Positions 17,349-56,362 of a DNA stretch of 57,557 nucleotides are shown piece after piece. Made by a program: the position numbers and the translations under genes. The notes under the pieces are model-generated. The model searched no databases. It had not been told where the DNA came from and was given only the letters and a program-made list of their open reading frames with translations. The DNA is from Candidatus Eiseniibacteriota bacterium (GTDB taxonomy: Bacteria; Eisenbacteria; RBG-16-71-46; SZUA-252): positions 1-57,557 of the forward strand of contig VBOX01000056.1 of NCBI GenBank assembly GCA_005893265.1, given 5' to 3'. Positions within the stretch are counted from its first letter, which is position 1; each line of letters starts with the position of its first letter.

Positions 17349-21528
<4,180 letters not shown>

Positions 21529-39188: not shown

Positions 39189-40451
39189 ATGGGCTCCGAG
39201 CTCCAAAAGGAGCTGGACCCCCTCGAAAACGCGAGGCTCCAATTCGAGGAAGCGGCGCAACGGCTCAAGCTCGATCCGAGCTTCGTGCAGATCATCAAGG
39301 AGCCGCGCCGCGCGACGATCGTCAAGCTCCCGGTCCAAATGGATGACGGGACCTTCCGCGTCTTCACCGGATACCGCGTGCAGCACTCCATCATCCGCGG
39401 CCCCGCCAAAGGCGGGATCCGCTACCACCCGGACGTCAACCTCGATGAGATCATGGCGCTGGCCGCCTGGATGACCTGGAAATGCGCGGTCGTCGGGATT
39501 CCGTTCGGGGGCGGCAAGGGGGGCATCGCGTGCGACCCCGCGAAGATGTCCCAGGGCGAGCTGGAGCGGCTCACCCGCCGCTACGTCGCGGACTTGATCG
39601 ACGTGATCGGGCCGGAGTCGGATGTGCCCGCACCCGACGTCAACACGAACGAGCAGACGATGGCCTGGATCATGGACACCTATTCCATGCACGCGCGTCA
39701 TACCGTCACCTCGGTGGTGACCGGCAAGCCGCTGGAGCTGGGTGGTTCCGCGGGTCGCCGCGAGGCGACCGGCCGGGGGGTCCTCTTCGTCATCCGCGAG
39801 GCCGCGAAGAAGATCGGCCTCAGCTTGAAGGGCGCCAAGGTCGTCGTGCAGGGGTTCGGGAACGTGGGCTCGGTCGCGGCGGACCTCCTCGTCAAGGACG
39901 GGGCGCTGATCGTAGGCGTGAGCGACGTCAAAGGAGGCGTCGGGAACCCGAAAGGGCTCGATTTGCCCGCTCTCATGGGCCATCTCTCCGAAAAGAAAAC
40001 GGTGGCCGGGTTTCCGGGCGGGACCCCGGTCGAGGGGAAGAAGATCCTGGAGCTCCCGTGCGATATCCTCATTCCGGCCGCCCTCGAGAATCAAATCACC
40101 CACGTGAATGCGTCGCGCCTCTCCGCCCGCATCATCGCCGAGGGCGCGAACGGCCCCACGACCCACCAGGCGGACAAGATCTTGAACAAGGCGGGCGTGA
40201 TGGTCATCCCGGATATCCTCGCGAACTCCGGAGGCGTCACGGTCTCCTACTTCGAGTGGGTCCAGGACCGCCAGGGCTATTTCTGGCGCGAGCACGAGGT
40301 GAACGAACGCCTGGAGCACATCATGGTCACCGCGTTCAACGACGTCGCGAGGATGGCCGAAGAGCACAAGGTCTCGCTCCGGGTCGCCGCCTTCATGCTG
40401 GCAATCAAGCGCGTCGTGGACGCGATCCAGCTCCGCGGGGTGTACGCCTAG
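39189..40451 (+). CDS. gdhA: glutamate dehydrogenase (Glu/Leu/Phe/Val family)
   Basis: [46 protein letters not shown]. Confidence 0.95.
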
Positions 40452-41375
40452 TCAGGACACCAGCCCCTCGTCGAACGTGAGGCGCCCGCGGCGCGGCTCG
40501 AGGGTAGCGTGCGCGCCCAGCGGCAATGGAAGGTTACGCCGTCCGTGCCCGGCGTGAAGCCCCGCGAGAACCGGAACGCCCAACTCCCCCAGACGATCGC
40601 GCAGGACCTCGCTCAATCTCAGCTCGCGGTGCTTCGGTTTTGGCACGCAGTTGATGAAGCTCCCGAGGGCCACCCCACGGGTACCGCGGAGCGCGCCCGC
40701 CAGAGAGAGATGCGTGAGCAAGGCGTCGATCTTGTACGGCGGCTCGTTGACCTCTTCCAAGAAGACAATCGCTCCGCGGAAGGAGGGAATGAACGGCGTC
40801 CCTGTAGCGTGGTTGACCAGGGCCAGATTGCCGCCCAGCACGTGCCCGGATGCCGAAGCGCGCCCGCCCGCCACCCGTCGCGGGACCGCCAACGATCGGA
40901 TTCCAAGCGCGGGGCTCGGGTTCGAAAGCCATGTGAGCCATCGGCTGATTTCCCCTCGCCGCCCGAAGCCCAGGCCGTGCAGGTTCGGCCCGTGGAGCGT
41001 GCGAACCCCCGCGTGAGCCTGAAAGCCGAGGTGCAGGAAGGTCGCGTCCGAGTACCCCGCGAAGATCTTCGGGTCGCGGCGCATCGCGTTCCAATCCACT
41101 TGGGTGGCGATTCGCATCGCCCCATAGCCGCCCCGGGCCATGAGCACGCACCGGACGTCCGGATCGCGGAGCATCCGGTTGAGATCCTCCGCGCGCGCGG
41201 CGTCCGTTCCCGCGAGATGGCCCCGCCGGTCGTAGAGATGCCGCCCGAGCTTGGGGCGATAGCCCGCCTGTTCCAGGACTTGGAGCCCCGCGACGACGTA
41301 CCGGTGCAGCACCGGCCCCGACGGAGCGACGATGCCGATCCGGTCCCCTGGGCGTAACCGGGGCGGCGCCTTCAT
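40452..41375 (-). CDS. ldcA: LD-carboxypeptidase (S66)
   Basis: RGGYG, GYSD (Ser), GGNL, LEEV.E, GHG (His). ATGA overlap with dacB. Confidence 0.93.
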   Translation of the reverse strand: MKAPPRLRPGDRIGIVAPSGPVLHRYVVAGLQVLEQAGYRPKLGRHLYDRRGHLAGTDAARAEDLNRMLRDPDVRCVLMARGGYGAMRIATQVDWNAMRRDPKIFAGYSDATFLHLGFQAHAGVRTLHGPNLHGLGFGRRGEISRWLTWLSNPSPALGIRSLAVPRRVAGGRASASGHVLGGNLALVNHATGTPFIPSFRGAIVFLEEVNEPPYKIDALLTHLSLAGALRGTRGVALGSFINCVPKPKHRELRLSEVLRDRLGELGVPVLAGLHAGHGRRNLPLPLGAHATLEPRRGRLTFDEGLVS

Positions 41376-42979
41376 CGTGGGATCATCCTTGGCGTCGCGC
41401 CTCCAGGCGCTGTCCCCGACTCCGCTCCTCTTCGATACCGGCTGAGAGCGCCGACGATGGCCTCTTCCGCGGCTCGGGCTGAAGCGACGCCCCCCCGGTT
41501 CCCGTTGCTCAGGATCGAGAACACGATCCGCTCTCCCTCGGCGGAGGTCACATATCCCGAGAGCGCGCTCACGTTGGTGAGCGTTCCCGATTTGGCCCGG
41601 AGCGACGCCTCCGGGCCCAGGTCCGGAAACCGGCGTTGGAGGGTCCCCACGCCACCAGGAACGGCGAGGGTTTCGCGAAAGACCTTGCTCAGCGTGGAGT
41701 CCTGTCCGAGATACGCGAGCCATCGAACGAACGCGCGCGGCGTCGCGAGATTGAGCGGCGATAACCCGGATCCGTCCACGAACGAGAGATCGAGAGTATC
41801 CACGCCCGCCTCCGCCAGCATCGATGAAAGCTTGCGCAGGCCCTGCGCGGCGGTTTTCCCGGCCGGGGCGGGATCGAGGAGACGCAGCAATGCCTCCGTC
41901 TCGACGTTCAGGCTGTACGCATCCACCATGGAAACGACTTCCGACGCCGGGGGGGACGAGAGGCTCGTCAACGTCACCGGATCCTTGGAGCCGGGCCGCC
42001 TGCCGTTCGCCGGCATGGTCGCGACTGTCCCCTTGACCTTGATCCCCGCCCGCCTCATCGCGCCTAAGAGTACGAGCCCGGCCGTGGAATCGGGCTCAGG
42101 CACGGCGACCTGGCGCTTGGCCACGCCGCCGCGCGGAACCCGCCCGCTGACGCGTAGAACTCGCGAGCCCGGGTCCCGTGAGATCGAGAGCACGGGTGCC
42201 GACGAGGAATCCACGAGCGACAGCCGGCCCTCCATCTTGAGCGGCGTCTCGGGGGGATCCAAGGAGAGCACGACGCCGGTTGGGGTCGCGGTCGCCAGGA
42301 GAGTCGCGGCGTTACCGTTCGCGAGCACCGAATTCAGCGGAGCCCCGTAGGACCACGGCAGGTCGTCGACCGCCCACCCCGGCCCGTACGGCTCGCGGGC
42401 GAAGAGGGTCCCATCCACCCAAACCGTGCCCTCGAATTTTCGCATCCCCGACTCGTAGAGCAGATAGGCGAGCGAATCGAGAAGGCCCCGGGAACCCGGT
42501 TTGAGCAGCTGGTACACGTCGGGGTATCCCGATCCACGCAGGATCAGATCCCCCTTGAGCGCGAGCTCGCGCCTCCCCTTGCTTCGGTCGAGCTTGCCTA
42601 CCGCCGCGATGTCCGCGAGCCCGCGCGCGTCCGGCCCGAATTGCTTGAGGAACGCTCCGGTCACGAAGAGCTTCATGTTGCTCGCCGGGATGAAACGGCC
42701 CTCCGGGTTCAGCCCGAGCAGGGTATCTCCCCGATCGAGAGATACCGCGAGGATGCCGACGTGGGAGCGCGCCGCCGCCTCCGTGCCGAAGCGAAGCGAA
42801 TCGGCGAGCGGTCCGGAGGGTACGTCGCACGCCGCGAAGACATGGCCGTCCCACCCAAGAATCGCCGAGAGGACCGGAACGAGGAGCAAGAGAGCCGCGG
42901 CGGCTCGCCTGCGCAGCGAACCGGGGCGGACCAGGAAGGGCCCGCCCCGGGAAAGGCTAGCAGCTCGCGGCCAGCTCAA
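41372..42979 (-). CDS. dacB: D-Ala-D-Ala carboxypeptidase/endopeptidase (PBP4, S13)
   Basis: PASNMK, SLN, DGSGLS..N, AKSGTL. The TTG start overlaps the porV TGA. Confidence 0.9.
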   Translation of the reverse strand: MSWPRAASLSRGGPFLVRPGSLRRRAAAALLLLVPVLSAILGWDGHVFAACDVPSGPLADSLRFGTEAAARSHVGILAVSLDRGDTLLGLNPEGRFIPASNMKLFVTGAFLKQFGPDARGLADIAAVGKLDRSKGRRELALKGDLILRGSGYPDVYQLLKPGSRGLLDSLAYLLYESGMRKFEGTVWVDGTLFAREPYGPGWAVDDLPWSYGAPLNSVLANGNAATLLATATPTGVVLSLDPPETPLKMEGRLSLVDSSSAPVLSISRDPGSRVLRVSGRVPRGGVAKRQVAVPEPDSTAGLVLLGAMRRAGIKVKGTVATMPANGRRPGSKDPVTLTSLSSPPASEVVSMVDAYSLNVETEALLRLLDPAPAGKTAAQGLRKLSSMLAEAGVDTLDLSFVDGSGLSPLNLATPRAFVRWLAYLGQDSTLSKVFRETLAVPGGVGTLQRRFPDLGPEASLRAKSGTLTNVSALSGYVTSAEGERIVFSILSNGNRGGVASARAAEEAIVGALSRYRRGAESGTAPGGATPRMIPR

Positions 42980-43925
42980 AACGCGATTTTGAGCGAGACC
43001 TGCTGATTGTCGTCGAAGAATTCGCCCATGTGGGTTCCCGCCCAATCGAAGCTCAGGGGACGGTCGCCCATTTTGAAATTGAGCCCGGCACCGTAGCTAT
43101 AGCTATAGAGGTAGTCCGGCTGCCGGTCCGCTTCATTGAGCGCAGCCTGACCCACGTAGCCCCCCCTCAGGGCGATGTGCTCGCCGAGCATGTTTCGTAG
43201 GAGACTCCGATCTGCATAAACGACGGCAGCTCGAAGTCCGTCGGCTCGAGTCGAACCACGTGAGGCTGAGCCGAGGGGTCATCGCCCGGAAGAATGAACC
43301 TCTGCTCGAAGTCAGGACCGCTGAAACGCATGTTGGGGCCGACATTCTTCATCGCAAATCCGAACCTGAGCCCGCGCCAGCCCGGGTCGTATTGGACTCC
43401 GAAATCCATGGCAAGACCGGTCGCGGAGGTCTGCGCGATCTTTTCATTGATGTAGCTCGCCGTAAATCCCAGCATGACCCTGTCGGTCATCCGGCGACCG
43501 TACGACAATCCGAATACGGAATACGTCGGATTGAGGATCTCCCCCGTTCCCTCCGGCGCGTCCTCCGTGGTGACGATGATGTCTCCAATGTTCAGCACCT
43601 TGAGCGAGAACGCCACATTCCCGGCGGACCCCAGCTTCGTGGAGACAACCCCATAGTTCACCTTGGTATCCGCGATGTAGCTGCTGTAGGCGACCATCGC
43701 CTCCGCGTTGTCGGTCGCGGCGAGCGATGCCGGGTTGTAGTAAAGATTGGCGATGCCATTGCCGAGCGCCGTCGACGCCCCGCTCATGGCGATCGCAGCG
43801 GCTCCCACCGGGATGCGCAGCTCCTGCGCTCCGGCTGTTCCGAGCCGGTCGAGCCCCCCAGCCTCCGCGCTTCCTGCGATGCCGAGCAGCGCGAGCGGGA
43901 GGACGATCACAAGAAAGGCCCTCAT
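42976..43925 (-). CDS. PorV/PorQ family outer-membrane protein, interrupted near 43193
   Basis: Signal peptide, GTAGAQEL.IPVGA..IAM.GA...YYNPA plug, beta-strands. The C-terminal IALRGGY...SLKIAF part is in another frame. Confidence 0.8.
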
Positions 43926-43987
43926 GTCCCTGACCCTCCGTCCATGGGAAGGAATTGTCGTAGGTTTCATAGCGATCGGGCCCCCCA

Positions 43988-46972
43988 TTAGAAGTTGTCC
44001 AACCGCTCTTTTTCTATGAATACGGCGAGTCGATCTGTTTTCGTGCCGACGCCCTCGACCTCAACGCGGTAGATGTAGACGCCGCTCCCGACGGGGAGAC
44101 GGTTGTCCGTGTGCAGATCCCACACGATTTCAGCACGCGACATGTCGTCGCCGGCCGAGGCGGACCTGCGTATGGTCCGGACGAGATCCCCTGACAGGTT
44201 GAAGATTCGGATGGTCACGTTACGGGACGCTGGAATGTTGGTGAACTTCATGACGCGGTCGAACTGGGTCAGCTCGTACTGGGAGTGCGCGTAGTACGGG
44301 TTCGGAACCGCGAGGATCTTCTTCATGTCGTTTTTCACGATGGTGCCCGGGGCCGAGCCGGAGGGAACCGCCCTGAACTCGAACGTGTCGCCCGTACAGA
44401 GGCTACCGCCCCGGACCCGGAAGCGGCCGCCGGGAAGCGGGTACGTGATCGCCCCGGTGCCCCCCGCGGCCTTGTAGAGCGTGAACCTCCCCAGCGTCTG
44501 GTCGTCGTTTGCAGGGTTGTAATCGGTCGACTTGATGCCGGGCGTCCCCCACGCTACCGAGGCGAACGGGATCCTCCGGATGTAGACCGCGTCGCCAAAG
44601 GTGAAGGTGCCACTGGCGTCGCGGTCGCGCACCATGATCGACATCTTCGCGTCGTCCGAGGGGTCCTCGTACGAGCACTGGCCCAGGTCGTAAACCTCCC
44701 ACGGCACGTTGAACGTGGCCTGTTTCGATGTATCGCCGCCGGCGTATGCCCAGGCCGGCTCCGAGGCCGTGGGAAGCAGCCGGAGCAGGTAATCGTGCTG
44801 GACCGCATCGGCGAAGTTGAAGTTGAGGATGTCGTACGGAACGATGTAGTTTTTCAAGAGGATCGTGCCCGAGGAGTCCACCTGCGCTCCACCCGCCATG
44901 TTGAGGGAGTCCGCAGCGCCCAAAAGACCTGTGCCCCCCTCGAGTTGGTCGATCATCGAGGGGTTTGTCGGGGCGGGATTGACGGTCGTGATGAAGCCTC
45001 TCACGACAGGCGAGTCGAACCCGCCCGTGCTGGGATTGCCGGGACCTGTGAACAGCGTGTCTCCGGATGCCACGCTGATGATCGCCCAGTTACCGCTCGG
45101 GAGGAGCACGACGTGGTACAGGGAATCGCTCACCGCGCCGACCTGACTCACCTGAAGGGTGGCGCCCACCACCTCGGTGCCGATCTGCCGGCCCGTGACC
45201 GTGTAGACCGCGTTACTCCCTCGCGGGGTTGCGGTCACCACGTTGAACCCGCTCTCGAGCACGTCGGTGAGGGTGCCGACCTGGTTGACCCCGACGAAAT
45301 AGGGCGCGACGTTCATGGTGTCCAGCGCAAACGACGTGACCGCGAAATAGTATGGCTTGTTATTGATCAGGCGGCCGCCGTGGAAGCCGTCCGAACTGAT
45401 GTCCAGCTGGAACCGCAGCCCCTCGTCCGTCCCTTTGATCACTTCCAAACGCTCGACCGCTCCCACCTGAGAATTGAAGAGGTCGCTGTAGAGGGCCGCG
45501 TACCCGTCCCCAGAGACATCATACGTGGCGAGGACCTTGGCCTCTCTGAACCCTCCGCTCGACGGAAGCTGCCAGACGCGGAAGCCCTCGAACACGTAGT
45601 CCTGCTTGAGAAACACATTCGCCGAGTGCGTGCCCACCGGCGTTTGGTCCCAGATCAGCCGGACCGATCGATCAAGATCCTGCACGTAGACGGTCGGGTT
45701 GGGGGGAGGCGCGGGAATGTCAAAATTAAGATCGAAAACAATCTGGGCTTGCTTGTCCTTTTCCTTGAGGTCCGTGATCGACGAGAGCCGATCGTTCCCC
45801 TGCCCGACGATGATCGCGATCGTCACCTCCTGCGAGTCCCCGGGCGCCATTGTGAAAGGCCCGGTGGACAGCTGGAGACGGCGGTCTGCCGGGCTCGAAT
45901 CGAGCCAACCGGTGCCGGCCACCGGGTCGCCGGGAACTTGGAAACGGGTGATCGCTTGGGCCGTGTCGTTGAACAGGTGCACCGGTGTTCCGTTTGCGTT
46001 GAGCCCCTGCATATAGTTGTACGTCTGATCGGCGCCGCGGGGATCCGTCCCGTTGATGTACTTGTTGAACGACGTCATCCCCAGGGTATCGAAAACGCCC
46101 GGCGTCCCCGAGGGCACGATCGGACCCCGGAAGAAATCGTAGCCCACCGCGGGCGGCGTGCCCCCGTACTGCTGATCGGCGTTGGTCGCGTTGTAGCAGA
46201 AGCCGAGGCTCCGCGTGGTGTCGCAGCCGACGAGGTCGTCCGTGAACCCGCCAAGGTCGGGGTCGCTCCAGGCGGAGACGTACATGCTGTCGAGCGTATT
46301 CCCGCCCTTGTTGAACAGCTTGTAGCGCACGAAGATGATGTTCCCGAGCGCTCCCGACCGGTTGAACGCGAACGTCGTCTGCTGGATCTCGACCCCGAGC
46401 GGCTCCGTTGAGCCGGCGAGGTTGCTGTGCACGTCGGGGTCCGCGTCGTTGTAGACGCTCCAGATCATCATGTCGCCCACGAGTGCCGGCGCCCCGGTCG
46501 AATCGACTGGAGCGCCTTGATCCACGGGCCAATTCAGGTAATCGGCGCTCGTCTTGTCACCTCGGACGATCTTGTAGTTCTTGAAGCGCGGGCTGTCCGT
46601 TTGGAACGTGCCGTTCAACATCGGACCCGGCACGTACTCCTGCGAGTACTCACCCACGGCGACGCGCACTTGGCCGTTCACCTTCGCGCCGATCCATGGA
46701 CCTGCCGCGAAGACCGCCGTCTTGGTCGATCCCTTCGGGTAGAAGAACCCCGCGGCCTGGCTCGTCAGCTCCTCAGCGAACGAGCCGTGGTTCGTGACGA
46801 TCATATCGATGTTGTTCGCATCGATATGGGTCTTGTTGTCCAGAATGGTGGCGGCTCGGCGGGGCACCGTGCGGCGGTTTGGCCCCGCCACCGGTTTCGC
46901 CGCGGCCGCCGCGTCCGAAGCGGCGACCAGCAAGATCAGGCACGCCGTTCCCAGCCAACACAGAAATCGCAT
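43988..46972 (-). CDS. large secreted protein with an FN3-like module and a T9SS-like/FlgD-Ig C-terminal domain
   Basis: Signal peptide. C-terminus AVPNPYY...FTNIP...TIRIFNLSGDLVRTI...WDL.T.N...GSGVYIY. SD GGAGG before ATG 46972. Confidence 0.8.
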   Translation of the reverse strand: MRFLCWLGTACLILLVAASDAAAAAKPVAGPNRRTVPRRAATILDNKTHIDANNIDMIVTNHGSFAEELTSQAAGFFYPKGSTKTAVFAAGPWIGAKVNGQVRVAVGEYSQEYVPGPMLNGTFQTDSPRFKNYKIVRGDKTSADYLNWPVDQGAPVDSTGAPALVGDMMIWSVYNDADPDVHSNLAGSTEPLGVEIQQTTFAFNRSGALGNIIFVRYKLFNKGGNTLDSMYVSAWSDPDLGGFTDDLVGCDTTRSLGFCYNATNADQQYGGTPPAVGYDFFRGPIVPSGTPGVFDTLGMTSFNKYINGTDPRGADQTYNYMQGLNANGTPVHLFNDTAQAITRFQVPGDPVAGTGWLDSSPADRRLQLSTGPFTMAPGDSQEVTIAIIVGQGNDRLSSITDLKEKDKQAQIVFDLNFDIPAPPPNPTVYVQDLDRSVRLIWDQTPVGTHSANVFLKQDYVFEGFRVWQLPSSGGFREAKVLATYDVSGDGYAALYSDLFNSQVGAVERLEVIKGTDEGLRFQLDISSDGFHGGRLINNKPYYFAVTSFALDTMNVAPYFVGVNQVGTLTDVLESGFNVVTATPRGSNAVYTVTGRQIGTEVVGATLQVSQVGAVSDSLYHVVLLPSGNWAIISVASGDTLFTGPGNPSTGGFDSPVVRGFITTVNPAPTNPSMIDQLEGGTGLLGAADSLNMAGGAQVDSSGTILLKNYIVPYDILNFNFADAVQHDYLLRLLPTASEPAWAYAGGDTSKQATFNVPWEVYDLGQCSYEDPSDDAKMSIMVRDRDASGTFTFGDAVYIRRIPFASVAWGTPGIKSTDYNPANDDQTLGRFTLYKAAGGTGAITYPLPGGRFRVRGGSLCTGDTFEFRAVPSGSAPGTIVKNDMKKILAVPNPYYAHSQYELTQFDRVMKFTNIPASRNVTIRIFNLSGDLVRTIRRSASAGDDMSRAEIVWDLHTDNRLPVGSGVYIYRVEVEGVGTKTDRLAVFIEKERLDNF

Positions 46973-47035
46973 CGTGTTCACCCTCCGTGGCTTCGTCAAA
47001 CTTGACCCCACTGCCGCGATGGAGCTCCGCATGGC

Positions 47036-49870
47036 TTAGAAACTGATCTTCGCGCCGAAGCGCACCAGCCGGCCGTTCTCGTGCAACGTTGGACTGAGTT
47101 CCGCCAGGGTGTAGCGCCGCTGGGCATTGGACGTGCTGTAGGTATTCTGCCCCTCCTCGGTGTTGAGGAAGTTGGTGGTCTCTGCGTTTCCCGTTCCCGT
47201 GTAGACGGTGCGGACATTGTCGCGATCGAAGACGTTGAGCACCCAAAGGTATACGTCGAGGGTCTGGGCACCGAGACTCAGCCCCTTGCTGGCCTTGACG
47301 TCGGCCGACACGGTCCAGGGCCCGTACCGAGAGTTGATCGGGCCGATCGGCTGCGCCGAAACGGCGGCGAGCGTCACCTCGTTGTAAATACGGGTCGGCG
47401 TGTATGGGAACCCGCTTCCCGCATTCACGAGCACGTTGATGCCGGCGTTCTCGAGTATCTTTTTCCCGCTCAGCGCTGGCCCCTCTCCCTTGCCGAGCCT
47501 GTAATCGAGGTTCCACGAAAACTTGTGCCGCTGGTCGAACGCGAGCGGAGTCGCGATCTTCGGCACCTCGTCCGCGGTCCACGCGATGTTCCGTTGCGTC
47601 TGCGAGACCGAGCCCGTGCCCGTCGCCCAGGACAAGCTGTAGGACGCCGTCATGGAGACATAGCCCACGCGCCTCAACGTGTAGGCGAGATCGAGCCCTT
47701 TGATCGTCGCGAAGTCGCGGTTGCGATAGGAGGAGAAGGCGTTCGGATTCGAGGGAATGCTCGTGATCTCGACCAGATCCTTCACGTCCTTGTAGTACGC
47801 GGCCGCCTCGATTCTCGAGCGCTCGGTGGGCGTGTGCGCGATTCCGACTTCATAGGCCGTGGTTTGCTCCGGCTTGAGATTCGGATTTCCGAACCCGACG
47901 AAGTACCCACCGGTTCTGATCTTGTGTTCCAGGAAGGCGTAGCTCACGTAGAGGTCTTGAAGGTTCGGCTGCTGGAAGAACTTTCCATAGTTCACATGGA
48001 CCAGCGTCCTGTCGCTCACCGGGAACCCGACGCCAAGGCGTGGGCTTAGCCTCCGATAGACTTTCGACTCCTGTAGATCCTGGGGGTCGAGCCTCGTCGG
48101 CAGGTTGGTCGAGTCGTTCACGTCCGACTGGAGCGGCGTGGTCTCGCTCCGCAACGATCGCGTGGACGGGGTGAGGTAATCGAACCTGAGCCCCCCGTTC
48201 ACGACGAGCCCAAGTTGCTCGTACTTCCCCTGTGCGTAGAGCGACGCCACCTTGGGATGCTTGGGTCCGTCCAGGCCCCCGTCGGTCTTCTCCCCGAAGG
48301 CATCGAACCCGTACCGATCCGCATCCAGGGTGTTCTTGGGAAGGATCACCCCGGCGCTGTCTTCGTAGAGCGCCGTCGGGTAGTAGTGGTCGTAATAGCG
48401 AAGCGTGTGACGTTGGTAATCGCCGCCCACTTTGACCTGGAACGCCTTCGAGATCTGGTTCGCATAGTCGGCTGCGGCGCCGTAGTAGGAAGAAGTCCTG
48501 TGGAGGAAGTCGTCCCACACGTGTGCGCCCTGCGGGTCCTTAGCCCCGTAGAAGAAGAGCGCTTCATTGGAATCGTATGTTGGATCGCCCTTTCCCTGCG
48601 GAAACGCGTACGCCTTGAGGTTGTCAAAATAAACGCCGTCGCCGCGGATCCGGTCGGTGAGGAAGTAGTTGGCCTTCACTTCGTAGTAGGAGCGGGTGCT
48701 CAAGCTGTGGTTCCACGTTCCGTACGCCGAATAGTTCTTGTCGCGGAAGCGAGGAGCGTGCTCGAGGTCGAACCGATACGGATTTTGAAACTGCTGCCAC
48801 TTGTCCTCGTTGTACGTGCCGCCAAGCTTCAGCGTTTTCAGCGGGCTGGGCTTCCACGAAAGCTTCCCGACCCCGGACCAGGTCTTGCTATCGTTCGAGG
48901 GCAGGACTCCGTTCGTAAACAGCCCGGGTTGCGAGGGATCCCCCACCTCGTCCGTGATGATGCTCGGCCTGCGATCCTGGACATCCTTCCGCTCGCCGGC
49001 CGCGTAGAAGGTCACCTGCTTCATGCTTGGAGCCAGGGGGCCGCCCACCGAGGCGCTGAAGTTCTTGTAGCCCCGGCTCTTCTCGAACCAGTCTCCGAGG
49101 ACACCCTCCGCGGATCCGAAGTACTTCTCGCCGCCTTCCTTCGTCACGATGTTGATCGCGCCCGAATTGATGCGCCCGTATTCGGCGTTGAATCCGCCGG
49201 TCTGGACCACGATCTCTTCGATCGCGTCGCCGTTGATCGCCGTCGTCGAGACGCCCGTGAGCGGATCCTGCTGCGAGAAGCCATCCACGTAGTAGGCGAC
49301 CTCATTGGGGCGGCCGCCGCGAATGATCAACGTGTTGTTGTTCTGCGCTTCGTTATCGATGTTCAACTTGAAGTTGACGACGCCCGATTGCTGCGCCACG
49401 GCATCCTGGTAGCCGCGCAGCGGCTGATACTTGATGTCGTCTCCGGAGAGAAACTTCGCGGAGCCTGTCAGGTCCTTCTGGATCAGGGGACGCTCCGCCT
49501 TGATGACCACTTCGGGCACGTTCGTCAGCACCGTGGATTCGATCGAGAAGTCGAGCCTGGTGTTGAAGTCGGGGATGATCTCCACGTCCTGCCGTACCTG
49601 CGAGACGAAGCCCAAGAGCGAGACTCGAACCGAATAGTGCCCGGCGGGAACATTCAAGATGCTGTAGTTCCCCTGGGCGTCGGTCACCGCCCCGCGCTTC
49701 AGATCCGGGATCGCGATGCTGGCGAGCGCTACCGGCTCTCCGGTTTTCGCGTCGTGGACGACCCCGGACAGCTGTCCCGTCGTTCCAGCCCGCGCGGTGC
49801 CAAACACAAAAACGGCGCTGGCCAAAAGGATGGCCGCGCCCAGTACAACCCTAAGACGAGGTCGAAGCAT
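47036..49870 (-). CDS. TonB-dependent receptor
   Basis: CarboxypepD_reg-like N-domain, plug IRGGRPNEVAYYVDG and GGFNAEYG, SPRLG, GNPNLKPEQT, C-terminal Phe. Confidence 0.93.
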   Translation of the reverse strand: MLRPRLRVVLGAAILLASAVFVFGTARAGTTGQLSGVVHDAKTGEPVALASIAIPDLKRGAVTDAQGNYSILNVPAGHYSVRVSLLGFVSQVRQDVEIIPDFNTRLDFSIESTVLTNVPEVVIKAERPLIQKDLTGSAKFLSGDDIKYQPLRGYQDAVAQQSGVVNFKLNIDNEAQNNNTLIIRGGRPNEVAYYVDGFSQQDPLTGVSTTAINGDAIEEIVVQTGGFNAEYGRINSGAINIVTKEGGEKYFGSAEGVLGDWFEKSRGYKNFSASVGGPLAPSMKQVTFYAAGERKDVQDRRPSIITDEVGDPSQPGLFTNGVLPSNDSKTWSGVGKLSWKPSPLKTLKLGGTYNEDKWQQFQNPYRFDLEHAPRFRDKNYSAYGTWNHSLSTRSYYEVKANYFLTDRIRGDGVYFDNLKAYAFPQGKGDPTYDSNEALFFYGAKDPQGAHVWDDFLHRTSSYYGAAADYANQISKAFQVKVGGDYQRHTLRYYDHYYPTALYEDSAGVILPKNTLDADRYGFDAFGEKTDGGLDGPKHPKVASLYAQGKYEQLGLVVNGGLRFDYLTPSTRSLRSETTPLQSDVNDSTNLPTRLDPQDLQESKVYRRLSPRLGVGFPVSDRTLVHVNYGKFFQQPNLQDLYVSYAFLEHKIRTGGYFVGFGNPNLKPEQTTAYEVGIAHTPTERSRIEAAAYYKDVKDLVEITSIPSNPNAFSSYRNRDFATIKGLDLAYTLRRVGYVSMTASYSLSWATGTGSVSQTQRNIAWTADEVPKIATPLAFDQRHKFSWNLDYRLGKGEGPALSGKKILENAGINVLVNAGSGFPYTPTRIYNEVTLAAVSAQPIGPINSRYGPWTVSADVKASKGLSLGAQTLDVYLWVLNVFDRDNVRTVYTGTGNAETTNFLNTEEGQNTYSTSNAQRRYTLAELSPTLHENGRLVRFGAKISF

Positions 49871-50119
49871 GATTCGCCCCCCTTTGATGATCCACCGTAT
49901 CGCCATTTCGAGGGTTCTCCATCCCTGGCAACGATCGAACCTTGACTTACCGATCCGACCTCTACTCCGCACATCCCGTGCCCAGCCCACAGGCACCCTC
50001 ATTTTGGCCACCGAAGGACTCAAAAAGTTACCGGCTCTGTCGCATTCACCCCCTGATCCGAAGCCCACTTACGAGCTGCGGCTCCGAATGCGTGAGCCGC
50101 AACACATTCCACTACCTTG

Positions 50120-50149
50120 AAATTACGTACCTGTCCGAAAATTTGTCAA
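50120..50149 (-). promoter_or_regulatory. sigma70-type promoter of the TBDR operon
   Basis: TTGACA-18 nt-TAATTT in an AT-rich patch. Confidence 0.6.
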
Positions 50150-50164
50150 CACTTTTTCCCATGC

Positions 50165-50202
50165 AAAAGACTAGGCCGCCCGGATTGAGTGCCCGGGCGG
50201 CC
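50165..50202 (-). terminator. intrinsic terminator after the outer-membrane barrel gene
   Basis: Perfect 10-bp stem GGCCGCCCGG/CCGGGCGGCC followed by TAGTCTTTT on the minus strand. Confidence 0.7.
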
Positions 50203-50259
50203 CTTGGACTGCTGCTACGTTTGGCTCCGCGGAGCCGTGCTGCTTGCCTTCTACGCCTC

Positions 50260-51597
50260 CTAGAAGTGGTACGTCGCGGAGGCGCGCGTGAATGGCGTGG
50301 ACCGGTCCCCGGAGAGAATGTACCCGCCGGTGAGCGGGAACTTCTCGTTGAGCGTCATGTCGACGTCCAGGTTGTTCCAGCGCATGCCGGTTCCAAGGCT
50401 GAGATTGAACGCCGAACTCCGCGTCTTGTCGATCGTCGTCACGTTGGGCGGCCCGAACGCGACGGTTTCGGTGCGGTCGCCAACGAGCGTGCGGTTCGCG
50501 CCCACGCGGACCTTGAGCCACTTCGTGGCGTCGGTCTCGATGGCGGCGAACACGACAGGGACCGCCGTGGTCTTTTCCGTCAATTCCTGCGTTTCGCCCG
50601 CGACGATGGCTGCGTCCGACCGCGTGAAATGGTGCTTCGCCTGCGCGACCGACACGCCCCAGAGAAGGAGGTTGTTGTCGTTCACGCGCATGTTGTCGGA
50701 AATCCCCACTCCGTACTGGCGGTAGGTCTCCTTGGCGGAGCGCGTGACGCCTGCCGCTCCACCGAAGTTGTCGACGGTCCAGCCGAGATCGTCGTTGACG
50801 TACCAGGCGGCCGGAACCCACACGTGCCGGTCACCCTGATTCACGAACGCGCGAGCGTTCACGACGTAGGAAGCGGAGCCGTCATCCTGCCAGCGCTCGT
50901 TCCCGGCCGCGGTCGAGCTGCGATCCAGGGAGTACTTGCGGTAGGTCACCGCACCCTCGAAGCGGTTGTCGTTGCTCATGTGTAGCGTGATAGCCGGCGT
51001 GACGCCGAACGTATTGAGCTCGATGCCACCGCCGACGATCTGGTTGGCGGTGACGACGCCGAACGGATAAGGATCGAATCCCGCGAGGTTGTCGATGCCC
51101 CGAGACTTCACCACGACGGCTCCCGGGGTCGTCGACGTTTCGGCGCTCGAGTTCGTGATGTCCACGCGGACCGCAAAATCGAAACTGCTGAACGCCTTCC
51201 CCCAGATCGCATCGAGCTGTTCGTTGTTGAGGCTGCTCGATGCCGTGAGGTTGTTGAGCGCGCTTTGCTTCATCTGAAACGCGATGGCTCCGAAGCGCGG
51301 GAAGTTCCGGATCACCGTGAAGCTTTGCTCGCCGAACGTGACGGAGCTGGGGGTGACCACATTGACGTCCGAAAGACCGGACGGGTTGTTGCCCAGTTCC
51401 GCCAGCACGAGATTGTTCTGCCGCACGACCGACGCGGGATAGTAATAGATGTTCACGTAATCGTCGGTGAACTGGCTGAGCGTGGGGACCGACAGCGACA
51501 TGCCCTCGACACGCGACAACGATGCCCGGCTCTCGCCCGCGGTCAGGGCGACGACTGCGGCCAGGCTCAAGACAGCCATCAGCTTGCGCTGAGACAT
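50260..51597 (-). CDS. outer-membrane beta-barrel protein (FadL/PorV-like plug; possible major OMP)
   Basis: Signal peptide, SRVEGM...DD..NIYYYPAS plug-like motif, amphipathic strands, terminal ASATYHF, SD AAGGAGG. Confidence 0.78.
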   Translation of the reverse strand: MSQRKLMAVLSLAAVVALTAGESRASLSRVEGMSLSVPTLSQFTDDYVNIYYYPASVVRQNNLVLAELGNNPSGLSDVNVVTPSSVTFGEQSFTVIRNFPRFGAIAFQMKQSALNNLTASSSLNNEQLDAIWGKAFSSFDFAVRVDITNSSAETSTTPGAVVVKSRGIDNLAGFDPYPFGVVTANQIVGGGIELNTFGVTPAITLHMSNDNRFEGAVTYRKYSLDRSSTAAGNERWQDDGSASYVVNARAFVNQGDRHVWVPAAWYVNDDLGWTVDNFGGAAGVTRSAKETYRQYGVGISDNMRVNDNNLLLWGVSVAQAKHHFTRSDAAIVAGETQELTEKTTAVPVVFAAIETDATKWLKVRVGANRTLVGDRTETVAFGPPNVTTIDKTRSSAFNLSLGTGMRWNNLDVDMTLNEKFPLTGGYILSGDRSTPFTRASATYHF

Positions 51598-51824: not shown

Positions 51825-51854
51825 ACCGTAGGCTTCCCGGCCCAGTCCTGTCAA
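51825..51854 (-). promoter_or_regulatory. sigma70-type promoter of the barrel gene
   Basis: TTGACA-18 nt-TACGGT, with a tandem repeat GCTCAAAAT/GCTCAAAT just upstream. Confidence 0.5.
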
Positions 51855-51930: not shown

Positions 51931-52395
51931 CTACGAATCGCGGCATTTGGAGCACAGTCCGCGAACCCTGACCGCGACTTCCTCGGCAGCGAACGCGGAT
52001 CGGCGCACGAGGTTGGCCAATGCCCTGGCCAGCGACTCATCCAAGACTTCCTGGATTGCGCCGCAACGGCGGCAAACGGGGTGATGATGCGGATCGCTGG
52101 GCTTGGCGAGCTCATAGTGCAGCGTCCCGTCGACCAGTTGTGTCCGACGCAGGATTCCCGCCGTCACAAGAAGGCTCAGGGTGCGGTAAATGCTCGCCCT
52201 TGAGAGACGTCTTCCTTGTCCACGGAGCCTGAGACGCAATGCTTCGGCATCGAAGTGCCGGGGCGCGTTCAGGATCGACTCTAGGATTTGCTGCCGAGGC
52301 GCGGTCGACCGGAGCTTTTGGGTCGCGAGAAACTGGACCCAGCGAAGTCTGGAATCCGCGAAGCTAGGGGCTGCTGGGGGAAGAGACAAGCTCAT
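51931..52395 (-). CDS. Fur family transcriptional regulator
   Basis: T.PR..IL, HFDAE, SRASIYRTL, HHH..C..CG, GLC..C. Confidence 0.9.
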   Translation of the reverse strand: MSLSLPPAAPSFADSRLRWVQFLATQKLRSTAPRQQILESILNAPRHFDAEALRLRLRGQGRRLSRASIYRTLSLLVTAGILRRTQLVDGTLHYELAKPSDPHHHPVCRRCGAIQEVLDESLARALANLVRRSAFAAEEVAVRVRGLCSKCRDS

Positions 52396-53725
52396 ATCGC
52401 CCAAATCCATCGCGATCCACGAACACAAACGTCCGTCGGTCCCGGTAGTAGTACCAGATCTCCTCGGGGGGGCGATCGAAGTTAAACGGATTGCGAACGA
52501 CTTCGTCGGGCGGCCCGTATACGACATAGATGCGGCCCATGTCGGTCTTCCATCCGGGGCTGCCCGTCGAGAAATGCTGGTTCGCGTACTGGACCCGCTG
52601 ATAGAACTCGTCCCGGGCCTCGTTCTCAGGCGTCTCCGGGGTCGGATCGCGTCGCTTCCAGAACGCTTCCCAGTAGGCTTTTCGCGCTTCCTCCCCTTGA
52701 AGTTTCCCGATCTCATCGATTTCCTGCTGTGTCGCGATATAGCGGAGGACATCCAATGATTGCGCGGAAGCGAATCCCATCGTCGCGCGCGATTGATCCA
52801 CATCAAAGCCTTTGTCCCGGCGGATCGTGGAGGTCTTGCCCTGTTTCGAGCCTGGCGTGGGTGGAACATTCATCGCCACGACGAACCGATAGGATCCAGG
52901 GCCCAGGCTGACCAGCCTCGGGCGGATGAGAAACGGTGTCCGGCCGGCCCGCCGCGTGAATGTTGTGTCGCCGATGATGACCTGCTCCCCGCTCTCGCTG
53001 ACCACCTTGTAGGAGAGGCGGAAGAGAGAGTCCGATCCCGCGTCGTTCCTCTGGTCGAAGATCTCCCCGGCGGCCGCGAATTGATCGATGTTGTCGCCGT
53101 AATGCCGGGACGGGTTGGGAACGAACTTGAGGGAGCCCCCCGCGCCGGACTCAGCGGTACCGAGGGAAAGGTCAGAGAACCACACAAGCCCAGGCGGCGA
53201 GGAGGGAACTTCGAAATCGATCGCGGTTCCAGACGTGCGCTCGGCGACAAGATCCGTGATCGCCACCTCGATCCGGTATTTGCCGGGCGGGAGCTGGAAA
53301 TCGAGATGGTCCGTGATGTCCTCTCCCCGCTTGCGCGTTTCGGAATAGGTCGATGCGCGAAGCTCTCGCGTGTACGTGTCTCCGGTGATCTGCCTTCCAC
53401 CCTTCTGCCTGAGGAAGATCACGCGCACCTCGTACGCGGCGCGGTATCCGGCCGGAGGGGTGCGTTCGAACAAGAGCTCGCTGCGGCTCAGGCGGTAGTC
53501 GAGCCGGACCGTCGGCTTACCCGACTCTCCCAGCTGCAGGGTGGCGTCGACCGAAAAGCGGGGACGGGTCGGACTCGTTCCGGGAGGTGCAGCGTCCGCC
53601 TGGGACGGCGGGCCCGGGTTTTGGTATTGAGCCGACGCCGTGCCGCTCCAAAGCCATGCCGCGCCGAGCAGGATGAGCCCACGGAGGGCTCGCGCCCTAA
53701 CGGAGGAGGATGAGTTGGCGGGCAT
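52364..53725 (-). CDS. GWxTD domain-containing protein
   Basis: Signal peptide; FWKRRDPTPET.ENE, RV.YAN, GWKTDMGRIY..YGPPD, E.WYY. Confidence 0.9.
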   Translation of the reverse strand: MPANSSSSVRARALRGLILLGAAWLWSGTASAQYQNPGPPSQADAAPPGTSPTRPRFSVDATLQLGESGKPTVRLDYRLSRSELLFERTPPAGYRAAYEVRVIFLRQKGGRQITGDTYTRELRASTYSETRKRGEDITDHLDFQLPPGKYRIEVAITDLVAERTSGTAIDFEVPSSPPGLVWFSDLSLGTAESGAGGSLKFVPNPSRHYGDNIDQFAAAGEIFDQRNDAGSDSLFRLSYKVVSESGEQVIIGDTTFTRRAGRTPFLIRPRLVSLGPGSYRFVVAMNVPPTPGSKQGKTSTIRRDKGFDVDQSRATMGFASAQSLDVLRYIATQQEIDEIGKLQGEEARKAYWEAFWKRRDPTPETPENEARDEFYQRVQYANQHFSTGSPGWKTDMGRIYVVYGPPDEVVRNPFNFDRPPEEIWYYYRDRRTFVFVDRDGFGRYELVSSPSSP

Positions 53726-56267: not shown

Positions 56268-56362
56268 CTGGCTCGACGCTACCACGCCCCGTCGAACCGC
56301 CTCAAGGGGCGTTGTTTCCGCTTGCCGGGTCAATTTGCGCCATGGTATAGACTCTCCACGAA

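Follow-up and report, generated by a model that had tools for sequence, protein, structure and literature searches.

The gene cluster

The subject of this analysis is a cluster of five genes in a soil bacterium of the candidate phylum Eisenbacteria. The window examined is the whole of contig VBOX01000056.1 (57,557 nucleotides), which is contig C36 of genome G000, a 2.48-Mb bin of 116 contigs that is 93% complete. Between positions 40452 and 50149, five minus-strand genes lie head to tail: a TonB-dependent receptor gene, a gene for a secreted protein of 994 amino acids whose C-terminal domain (CTD) resembles type IX secretion system (T9SS) sorting domains, a gene for an outer-membrane barrel of the PorV/PorQ family, dacB, and an ldcA-like gene. 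An earlier note on this DNA, made from the sequence alone, had placed the same five genes on the minus strand, with ~995 residues for the CTD protein, and this placement is borne out. The reading developed below, to which we give an even chance of being right, is that the receptor works with a surface partner that a private PorV-family barrel tethers by the CTD, and that this partner most likely captures a glycan.

Three of the junctions between the genes are overlaps. The CTD-protein gene and the PorV-like gene are translationally coupled, stop and start codon meeting in TAATG, and spacing of this type recurs at the same junction in orthologues. The TTGA overlap between the PorV-like gene and dacB and the ATGA overlap between dacB and ldcA, both described in the earlier note, were seen again, and ldcA abuts the stop codon of the convergent glutamate dehydrogenase gene, gdh. 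The absence of SusD, also claimed in that note, holds for the locus and for the genome: a PF07980 profile search of the whole genome returned no match, and the same profile responded to a Bacteroides thetaiotaomicron positive control.

Conservation of a three-gene unit

The first three genes of the cluster, hereafter the triad, are a conserved unit; on the evidence of gene order they form a putative outer-membrane module of phyla of the Fibrobacterota-Chlorobiota-Bacteroidota (FCB) group other than Bacteroidota. This conclusion comes from a survey of gene neighbourhoods, which the earlier note had proposed. One genome per species was scanned, and 213 places were found to encode the CTD-protein family. 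The best 80 were analysed, with flanks scored by tblastn using the window proteins and their paralogues on contig C77, and 47 of them hold a full-length orthologue (35-81% identity). Wherever a full-length orthologue has at least 1 kb of upstream flank, the receptor gene lies directly upstream (43 of 43 loci), and a PorV-family gene lies directly downstream in all 47. By record title, 28 of the 47 loci belong to Eisenbacteria, six to Zixibacteria and two to Ignavibacteria; five have no phylum label and six carry other titles. The last six (L016, L017, L025, L029, L037 and L069) are titled Dormiibacterota, Binatia, Limnocylindrales, Omnitrophota, Bacteroidota or Saccharimonadaceae, at 46-78% identity and with the Eisenbacteria gene order. 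These taxon labels are probably wrong, and the six loci were not counted as extra phyla because they share Eisenbacteria synteny. The remaining 33 of the 80 loci comprise seven that are cut by a contig end, with a receptor gene upstream, and 26 that encode shorter paralogues sharing mainly the N-terminal domain.

Around the triad, Eisenbacteria keep a longer order: a gene for a protein with LVIVD repeats and a CTD, a GWxTD gene, sometimes a Fur-family gene, a porin-like gene, the triad, and then gdh. Zixibacteria and Ignavibacteria keep the triad only. The source genome itself carries a second triad, at C77:3601-10280, that is 25% identical to the first. PmbA/TldD genes and a GWxTD gene lie on its flanks, and it has neither dacB nor ldcA. 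Full-text literature searches found no published description of the triad.

The TonB-dependent receptor

The receptor gene occupies an open reading frame (ORF) at 47036-50068 on the minus strand, with a likely coding sequence of 47036..49909. The protein combines a CarboxypepD_reg-like domain (PF13620, 65.1 bits), a plug domain (PF07715, 43.0 bits; cut-off 23.9) and a barrel (PF00593, 93.3 bits; cut-off 27), and a TonB-box-like motif, EVVIKA, can be seen by eye in the translation between the CarboxypepD_reg domain and the plug. It fails the SusC/RagA model TIGR04056, scoring 54.3 bits against a cut-off of 368.25, with residues 99-313 as the only matching part. A PDB sequence search with the receptor found no relative at E ≤ 1e-3. 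Six plug-domain genes are present in the genome.

The receptor-like protein could conceivably have a role other than import. The triad would then be a module for a surface structure, an adhesin or envelope biogenesis, with the receptor-like barrel as an anchor. This reading is consistent with the weak plug domain of the C77 receptor, which at 23.2 bits falls just under the cut-off, with the presence of GWxTD genes near both triads of the genome, and with a weak match of the PorV-family model to BamG. The window receptor, however, exceeds the Pfam cut-offs for both plug and barrel and has the TonB-box-like motif, and we regard a non-import module as improbable.

The secreted CTD protein

The 994-residue protein is encoded at 43988..46972 on the minus strand, from an ATG that follows GGAGG. 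It begins with a signal peptide that, by eye, is of the signal-peptidase-I type, and it has no Pfam match over its length. Among 8000 candidates scored, 2164 relatives were found at E ≤ 1e-3, and every named one is annotated either as "hypothetical" or as a "T9SS type A sorting domain" protein. An AlphaFold2 (AF2) model built from 33 sequences has a mean pLDDT of 77.4 and a pTM of 0.56, with values mostly between 85 and 94 in the N-terminal domain.

AF2 modelling and structure comparison with VIA-align assign the N-terminal domain (residues ~42-420; 45713..46849, minus strand) to the galactose-mutarotase-like beta-supersandwich fold. VIA-align searched 48,161 chains, for which the typical background Z is 7-8. 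The three best matches are N-terminal domains of glycan-active enzymes: dextran dextrinase (9ju0; Z 20.0, root-mean-square deviation (rmsd) 3.2, 251 residues aligned), glucodextranase (1ulv; Z 19.9, rmsd 3.2, 248 aligned) and glucoamylase (1lf6; Z 19.5, rmsd 3.2, 244 aligned). Next come the N-terminal domains of glycoside hydrolase (GH) families GH94, GH116 and GH65; polysaccharide lyase and GH174 entries score Z 12-15, and aldose epimerases and the P1 domain of YidC lie near Z 13. A Foldseek search of the N-terminal part, another check put forward in the earlier note, agrees with the beta-supersandwich assignment. This fold binds or processes glycans in GH15, GH94, GH65 and GH116 enzymes, and it is catalytic in aldose epimerases. 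The modelled fold of the N-terminal domain thus points to glycans rather than peptides, although a fold alone is no proof of ligand.

By sequence searches, the N-terminal domain also defines a large unnamed and unannotated domain family. Of 1.84 billion, 7033 cluster representatives match at E ≤ 1e-3 and 2038 at E ≤ 1e-30. The domain is found nearly always directly behind a signal peptide. A sample of 121 genomes from the phylum has it in 109, a count that takes in the unpublished genome G015. It falls under no Pfam model, and the ESM Atlas gave only clusters named "hypothetical protein".

The middle of the protein is built of further beta domains. Residues ~425-586 (45215..45700, minus strand) form a fibronectin type III (FN3)-like domain with an insertion, with FN3 matches at Z 9.2-9.7. 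Residues ~590-875 (44348..45205, minus strand) form a variable all-beta region that matches a FlgK domain best (Z 9.8, 85 residues); no convincing known fold was found for this region, and Foldseek returned only low-probability matches. A separate domain model of residues 425-885 has a pLDDT of 86. The alignment of the same residues has a mean column identity of 25%, and this low conservation is driven by the 590-875 region. Structure matches revealed no known catalytic domain in residues 425-875.

The C-terminal part consists of a T9SS type-A-like CTD (residues ~885-985; 44018..44320, minus strand), assigned from a score near the cut-off of TIGR04183 and from likeness to the PorU CTD, followed by a short tail. 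At E ≤ 0.01, the PorU model matches 26 of 33 family members with its CTD end, TIGR04183 matches 16, PorZ 11 and the M6-like T9SS protein eight. The best solved relative of the family profile is the PorU CTD 6za2 (E 2.6e-5). With Pfam models, Por_Secre_tail matched none of the family CTDs and FlgD_ig matched five of 33. The tail, IEKERLDNF (43991..44017, minus strand), extends beyond the last CTD strand and is nearly invariant in orthologues. Thirty CTD-like C-termini were identified in the genome, of which 28 end in lysine or arginine and one in glutamate; the remaining one is that of the CTD protein, with its IEKERLDNF tail. The C77 paralogue lacks the tail. This unique and conserved sequence suggests that the CTD protein may receive special handling.

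These features bear on a reading in which the operon is loosely coupled and resembles a polysaccharide utilization locus: the CTD protein would be an ordinary T9SS cargo, either an enzyme or a binding protein for some polymer, the barrel its private secretion shuttle, and the receptor an importer of the products without any physical complex among the three. The conservation of the triad fits this reading equally well, and PorV is described as a shuttle in excerpts of PMC10202324 and PMC10994853. The catalytic role of the supersandwich in aldose epimerases and the matches to polysaccharide lyase and GH174 entries would also suit such an enzyme. Against it stand the lack of any known catalytic domain in residues 425-875, the matches of family CTDs to PorU, PorZ and M6-like models alongside the generic type-A model, and the conserved tail. 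A loosely coupled operon is rather unlikely.

The PorV-like barrel

The third gene of the triad (42976..43988, minus strand) belongs to the PorV/PorQ family by its match to NF033709. The fragment encoded in the window scores 128.8 bits against a cut-off of 90, and the intact orthologue at L016 scores 148 bits over positions 6-325 of the 326 in the model. The L016 barrel lies below the cut-offs of all three equivalog models: PorV (NF033710, 49.7 bits against 250), PorQ (NF033711, 70.1 against 220) and PorV2 (NF052325, 50.2 against 325). Its solved relative is Flavobacterium johnsoniae PorV (6h3i_F, E 2.1e-7).

In the window, the frame of this gene is broken at 43193|43194: it ends at 43167 and is taken up again in a different frame that runs to 42976. 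The break arises because 91 bases carried by all intact orthologues are absent. They correspond to ~32 codons, or one beta-hairpin, and lie between "..GVSY" and "MLGEHIALRGGY" in the intact proteins. The frame is unbroken and ends in phenylalanine in 44 of 47 orthologues; the other three were mis-framed by the analysis script. Assemblies from four soil metagenome runs (X1-X4) from four studies, one of which may be the sample of origin, were compared at this position. One X2 contig spans 43193|43194 and has exactly 91 additional letters there. In X1, X3 and X4, contigs begin at 43194 and carry 57-76 loose letters with a common consensus, the same extra sequence. The deleted junction of the window occurs in no contig from the four runs. 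The break thus most likely reflects an artefact of assembly or a rare variant. Several assemblies break their contigs at this same position, and the spot may be hard to assemble.

Structure prediction was applied to the L016 barrel (residues 44-368) together with the CTD (residues 870-991), with a 33-row alignment for each chain. The complex reached ipSAE values of 0.92, 0.91 and 0.90; the highest value among three controls was 0.00. Partner pLDDT did not fall below 77, and 97% or more of the contacts were common to the runs. The mark used by the tool is reached by 116 of 157 solved complexes and by two of 215 mismatched pairs. The PorV-like barrel is thus predicted to bind the CTD of its neighbour.

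A possible private barrel per surface protein, and the T9SS components of the genome

The pairing of a PorV-family gene with a CTD-protein gene extends beyond the triads. The genome has eight PorV-family genes, six of which lie directly downstream of a gene taken to encode a CTD protein. The six upstream genes encode PorU (on contig C56), an M6-like/FG-GAP protein (C18), a 1653-residue protein (C28), a 2059-residue immunoglobulin (Ig)-like protein (C98) and the CTD proteins of the two triads; for the C18 protein, which has no CTD match, the CTD is assumed from the name of its NCBIfam family. This pattern suggests that the genome provides one private barrel for each major surface protein. The PorV-family barrel on C28 is fused to tetratricopeptide (TPR) repeats.

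Parallels for such pairing exist in Bacteroidota. According to excerpts of PMC10202324, the CTDs of PorU and PorZ are retained and bound to PorV and PorQ, and genes for type-B cargo cluster with their cognate PorP/SprF genes. The pairing of six of the eight barrels mirrors both the retention of PorU by PorV and of PorZ by PorQ and the clustering of type-B cargo with PorP/SprF.

The earlier note had proposed a genome search for sprA and porKLMN, and its outcome was mixed. PorU on C56 scores 441 bits against a cut-off of 420 and adjoins the best PorV-family match, and an N-terminal piece of SprA at a contig end scores 145 bits (cut-off 200). Models for GldK/PorK, GldL/PorL, GldM/PorM, GldM_1st, SprA_N and PorP found no match in the 93% complete genome, and PorN was not searched. 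Most of the model controls were silent, and the models were trained on Bacteroidota. Together, the data may reflect a reduced or very divergent T9SS outside Bacteroidota.

The dacB and ldcA genes

Two genes for peptidoglycan peptidases follow the triad. The first, dacB (41372..42979, minus strand), encodes a penicillin-binding protein 4 (PBP4) of peptidase family S13 with a signal peptide (PF02113, 223.2 bits; TIGR00666, 191.3 bits against a cut-off of 107.8). The second (40452..41375, minus strand) encodes an LdcA-like LD-carboxypeptidase of family S66 that, by eye, has no signal peptide. Both S66 domains are present and exceed their cut-offs (PF02016, 129.7 bits; PF17676, 118.5 bits), and the LdcA equivalog NF008424 scores 173.7 bits against 378.

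The earlier note took these genes as evidence that the tethered protein and the receptor scavenge cell-wall fragments or peptides, with DacB and LdcA trimming what is imported. The idea draws on the overlaps that join dacB and ldcA to the preceding genes and on the absence of any promoter motif of their own. The adjacency also reaches beyond this genome: among loci with enough flank, dacB occurs further downstream of the triad in 20 of 40 and ldcA in 18 of 38. Moreover, exogenous muropeptides are known to sustain an FCB bacterium, according to the abstract and excerpts of PMC11652737. On the other side, all dacB adjacencies fall within the near clade of the window (CTD-protein identity of at least ~51%), except at L071, with a CTD-protein identity of 39% and a dacB match of 30%. 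In four mid-distance Eisenbacteria loci (L061, L069, L070 and L075), gdh instead directly follows the PorV-like gene. The C77 triad has neither peptidase gene. Among five triad genomes without adjacent dacB, an S13/PBP4-family gene was not found in four and lies elsewhere in one. Both dacB and ldcA are single-copy in the source genome by tblastn, which fits housekeeping genes, and the presence of mreBCD, PBP2 and rodA in the window indicates that the cell makes its own wall. The glycan-type fold of the N-terminal domain likewise speaks against muropeptides or peptides as the imported substrate. Muropeptide scavenging is not an absurd idea, but it is poorly supported here and very improbable.

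The link to peptidoglycan is not supported as the core function, and the triad clearly works without dacB and ldcA. We read them as housekeeping cell-wall genes joined to the end of the operon, a lineage-specific addition rather than parts of the module. In the clade of the window, they are likely co-transcribed with the triad.

Promoter, terminator and 5' leader

The single promoter proposed in the earlier note, at 50120..50149 on the minus strand (TTGACA, an 18-nt spacer and TAATTT), gains support from conservation of spacing in orthologues and from the uniqueness of the motif in the operon. Of 34 upstream regions from orthologous loci, at least 90% have T26, A27 and T31 of a −10-like element at fixed spacing; these regions were anchored on their TTGAC before comparison, so the TTGAC box itself is not independent evidence. 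The pattern TTGAC-N18-21-TANNNT occurs five times in the window, where 0.73 would be expected, and all five occurrences are intergenic. The only one within 40452-50400 is that at 50120-50149, and the motif scan of the window found none before dacB or ldcA, which bears on the independent dacB promoter that the earlier note had named as evidence against a peptidoglycan link. A generic sigma-70 scan of 40000-50400 gave no promoter-like sites and was replaced by the motif of the lineage itself.

Just upstream, at 50173..50203 on the minus strand, lies the intrinsic terminator hairpin of the preceding porin-like ORF. It has 12 pairs, of which ten are G-C, and a run of T behind it. Orthologous loci keep the hairpin at the same place, and it is the 5' boundary of the operon.

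Between the promoter and the receptor is a 5' leader of ~200 nt (49910..50112, minus strand) with conserved blocks in alignments of 17-20 orthologues, ending in the Shine-Dalgarno sequence AAGGAG. This sequence precedes a conserved in-frame ATG or TTG, which is codon 54 of the receptor ORF. Because the Shine-Dalgarno sequence and this in-frame start codon are conserved in orthologues, the receptor likely starts at 49909 (codon 54) or 49870 (codon 67) and not at 50068; codon 54 lies 36-39 nt before the ATG at codon 67. In the leader, a hairpin seen by eye just past the transcription start site seems to carry compensatory changes. No riboswitch from which the ligand could be read was found. Rfam gave no match at the gathering score across the whole window, and at E ≤ 10 the region 49800-50220 gave only two chance-level matches. 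The minimum free energy (MFE) z-score of the leader is −0.8, so that it folds no better than shuffled sequences, and RNAalifold, run on a MAFFT alignment that is not structure-aware, found nine pairs, one of them with a compensatory change. The leader may act as a regulatory RNA or consist of operator sites.

Neighbouring genes and the Fur-family regulator

Upstream of the terminator, a 445-residue porin-like ORF (50260-51597, minus strand) ends in phenylalanine and has no Pfam match; against the PopA porin-like model it reaches a weak 62 bits, where the cut-off is 150. A promoter motif (51825-51854) and a terminator belong to this ORF, which is kept just upstream of the receptor in Eisenbacteria. 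A Fur-family regulator gene (51931-52350, minus strand) lies between this ORF and a GWxTD-domain gene (52364-53908, minus strand).

The Fur-family gene, two genes upstream of the triad, raises the possibility of metal or metallophore uptake under its control, and the invariant acidic clusters of the CTD protein, DPDLGG..DD, could be taken in the same sense. Yet, at the settings used, a Fur-family gene was found upstream in only four of the 50 orthologous loci in which a receptor was scored (L025, L031, L039 and L054), in addition to the window, where another gene and a terminator stand between it and the operon. On this distribution, Fur was rejected as the regulator of the operon, and metal uptake is extremely improbable.

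GWxTD-domain genes occur with both triads of the genome, the second at L012:10294-11790. Among 33 orthologous loci whose flank is long enough, 18 have such a gene upstream. A full-text literature search on GWxTD found no paper. Further along, an 878-residue protein with LVIVD repeats and a FlgD_ig-type CTD (53697-56333, minus strand) is syntenic in Eisenbacteria relatives and is likely another T9SS cargo. Elsewhere in the window, an 830-residue open frame (18374-20866, minus strand) joins CTP synthase domains to a DAHP_synth_1 (KdsA-like) domain; it may reflect a genuine fusion, read-through across two genes or an ORF that was called too long.

A model for the triad

From the gene order, the folds and the barrel-CTD prediction, we infer an export route, a mode of retention, a contact with the receptor and a type of ligand for the CTD protein. 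The 994-residue protein would cross the inner membrane by Sec and then the outer membrane by a T9SS-type route, for which the genome offers PorU, a PorV and a SprA-like piece. It would stay on the surface with its CTD held by the dedicated PorV/PorQ-family barrel encoded immediately downstream, a retention modelled on that of PorU by PorV and of PorZ by PorQ in Porphyromonas. The N-terminal beta-supersandwich would capture a substrate, most likely an oligo- or polysaccharide, and the tethered protein would pass it to the co-encoded TonB-dependent receptor, much as SusD or a surface glycan-binding protein (SGBP), both lipoproteins, serves SusC. This model is supported by the conserved gene order, the paralogous triad on C77, the TAATG coupling, the complex prediction, the pairing of six of eight barrels with CTD-protein genes, the fold of the N-terminal domain, the lack of SusD and the single promoter. 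It retains from the earlier note a PorV-tethered CTD protein beside the receptor in place of SusD, in keeping with the conserved triad, the predicted barrel-CTD binding and the absence of SusD, and it departs from that note on the scavenging of muropeptides or peptides.

Several observations weigh against the model. The export route is uncertain because the PorK, PorL, PorM and PorP models matched nothing, and the CTD scores 22.2 bits on TIGR04183, just under the cut-off of 23. The successful complex prediction may reflect memory of known structures, since PorV-substrate complexes have already been solved (8gl6 and others, listed under the PorV chain), and the modelling does not single out this barrel over the canonical PorV on C56. 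The second receptor of the genome has the sub-threshold plug described above. The shorter paralogues have no receptor gene upstream in any of 20 loci with at least 1 kb of flank and no PorV-like gene beside them in any of 26, which indicates that the N-terminal domain also works outside triads. The supersandwich fold is also found in non-glycan contexts, such as the P1 domain of YidC (Z 13). Finally, the contact between receptor and CTD protein and the transport itself are putative steps.

Relation to known systems

SusC/SusD pairs explain polymer uptake by Bacteroidota; to our knowledge, the sister phyla of Bacteroidota are without SusD. Like SusC/SusD (RagA/RagB) and the utilisomes of Bacteroidota, the triad belongs to the FCB group and comprises a TonB-dependent transporter with a CarboxypepD_reg-like N-terminal domain and a co-encoded surface partner presumed to capture substrate. 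Unlike them, it has a receptor far below the SusC/RagA model (54 against 368 bits) and no SusD; its partner is a Sec/T9SS-type CTD protein rather than a lipoprotein, and a third gene encodes a PorV-family barrel. A similar three-part logic of receptor, capture protein and display barrel is seen in the clusters of Slam, surface lipoprotein and TonB-dependent receptor genes of Proteobacteria (the TbpB-TbpA type), where the families are unrelated and the cargoes are lipoproteins that bind iron sources.

Within the T9SS, the nearest counterparts are the PorU-PorV and PorZ-PorQ pairs of Porphyromonas, in which, in the excerpts of PMC10202324, a barrel of the PorV/PorQ family holds a surface protein by its uncleaved CTD, as is predicted for the triad pair. 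The triad barrel differs in being no equivalog of PorV, PorQ or PorV2; its cargo is a supersandwich protein, it always occurs with a TonB-dependent receptor, and its host lies outside Bacteroidota and has no PorKLM that could be found with the models used. A second counterpart is type-B CTD cargo with PorP/SprF, such as SprB-SprF, where the cargo gene is clustered with a private barrel thought, in the same excerpts, to anchor it. In the triad, the barrel is of another family, no PorP match being present in the genome, and the CTD is type-A-like. Every part of the triad is thus of a known kind. The combination is new: a receptor with a CTD protein tethered by a PorV paralogue, without SusD and outside Bacteroidota.

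Implications

A broader form of the model, which we hold tentatively and consider somewhat more likely to fail than to stand, is that the triad is a SusD-independent "utilisome" of non-Bacteroidota FCB phyla, in which a private PorV paralogue permanently holds a T9SS-exported supersandwich partner. In this broader form, each major surface protein would have its own anchor, as six of the eight PorV-family genes suggest, and export would depend on a reduced T9SS with SprA-like, PorU and PorV components and no detectable PorKLM. If so, CTDs held by barrels would be a general and possibly ancestral mechanism of surface display.

The triad is of interest to the fields of T9SS and of nutrient uptake in the FCB group, its function being deduced from gene order and predicted structure, and the analysis of its N-terminal domain draws attention to a large domain family that has gone unannotated. 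If the triad is the functional counterpart of SusC/SusD pairs in the sister phyla, the holding of an uncleaved CTD by a cognate barrel would extend from parts of the T9SS itself, PorU and PorZ, to a partner in nutrient uptake, and there would be a testable account of feeding through TonB-dependent receptors in Eisenbacteria, Zixibacteria and Ignavibacteria, groups that are common in soil and sediment.

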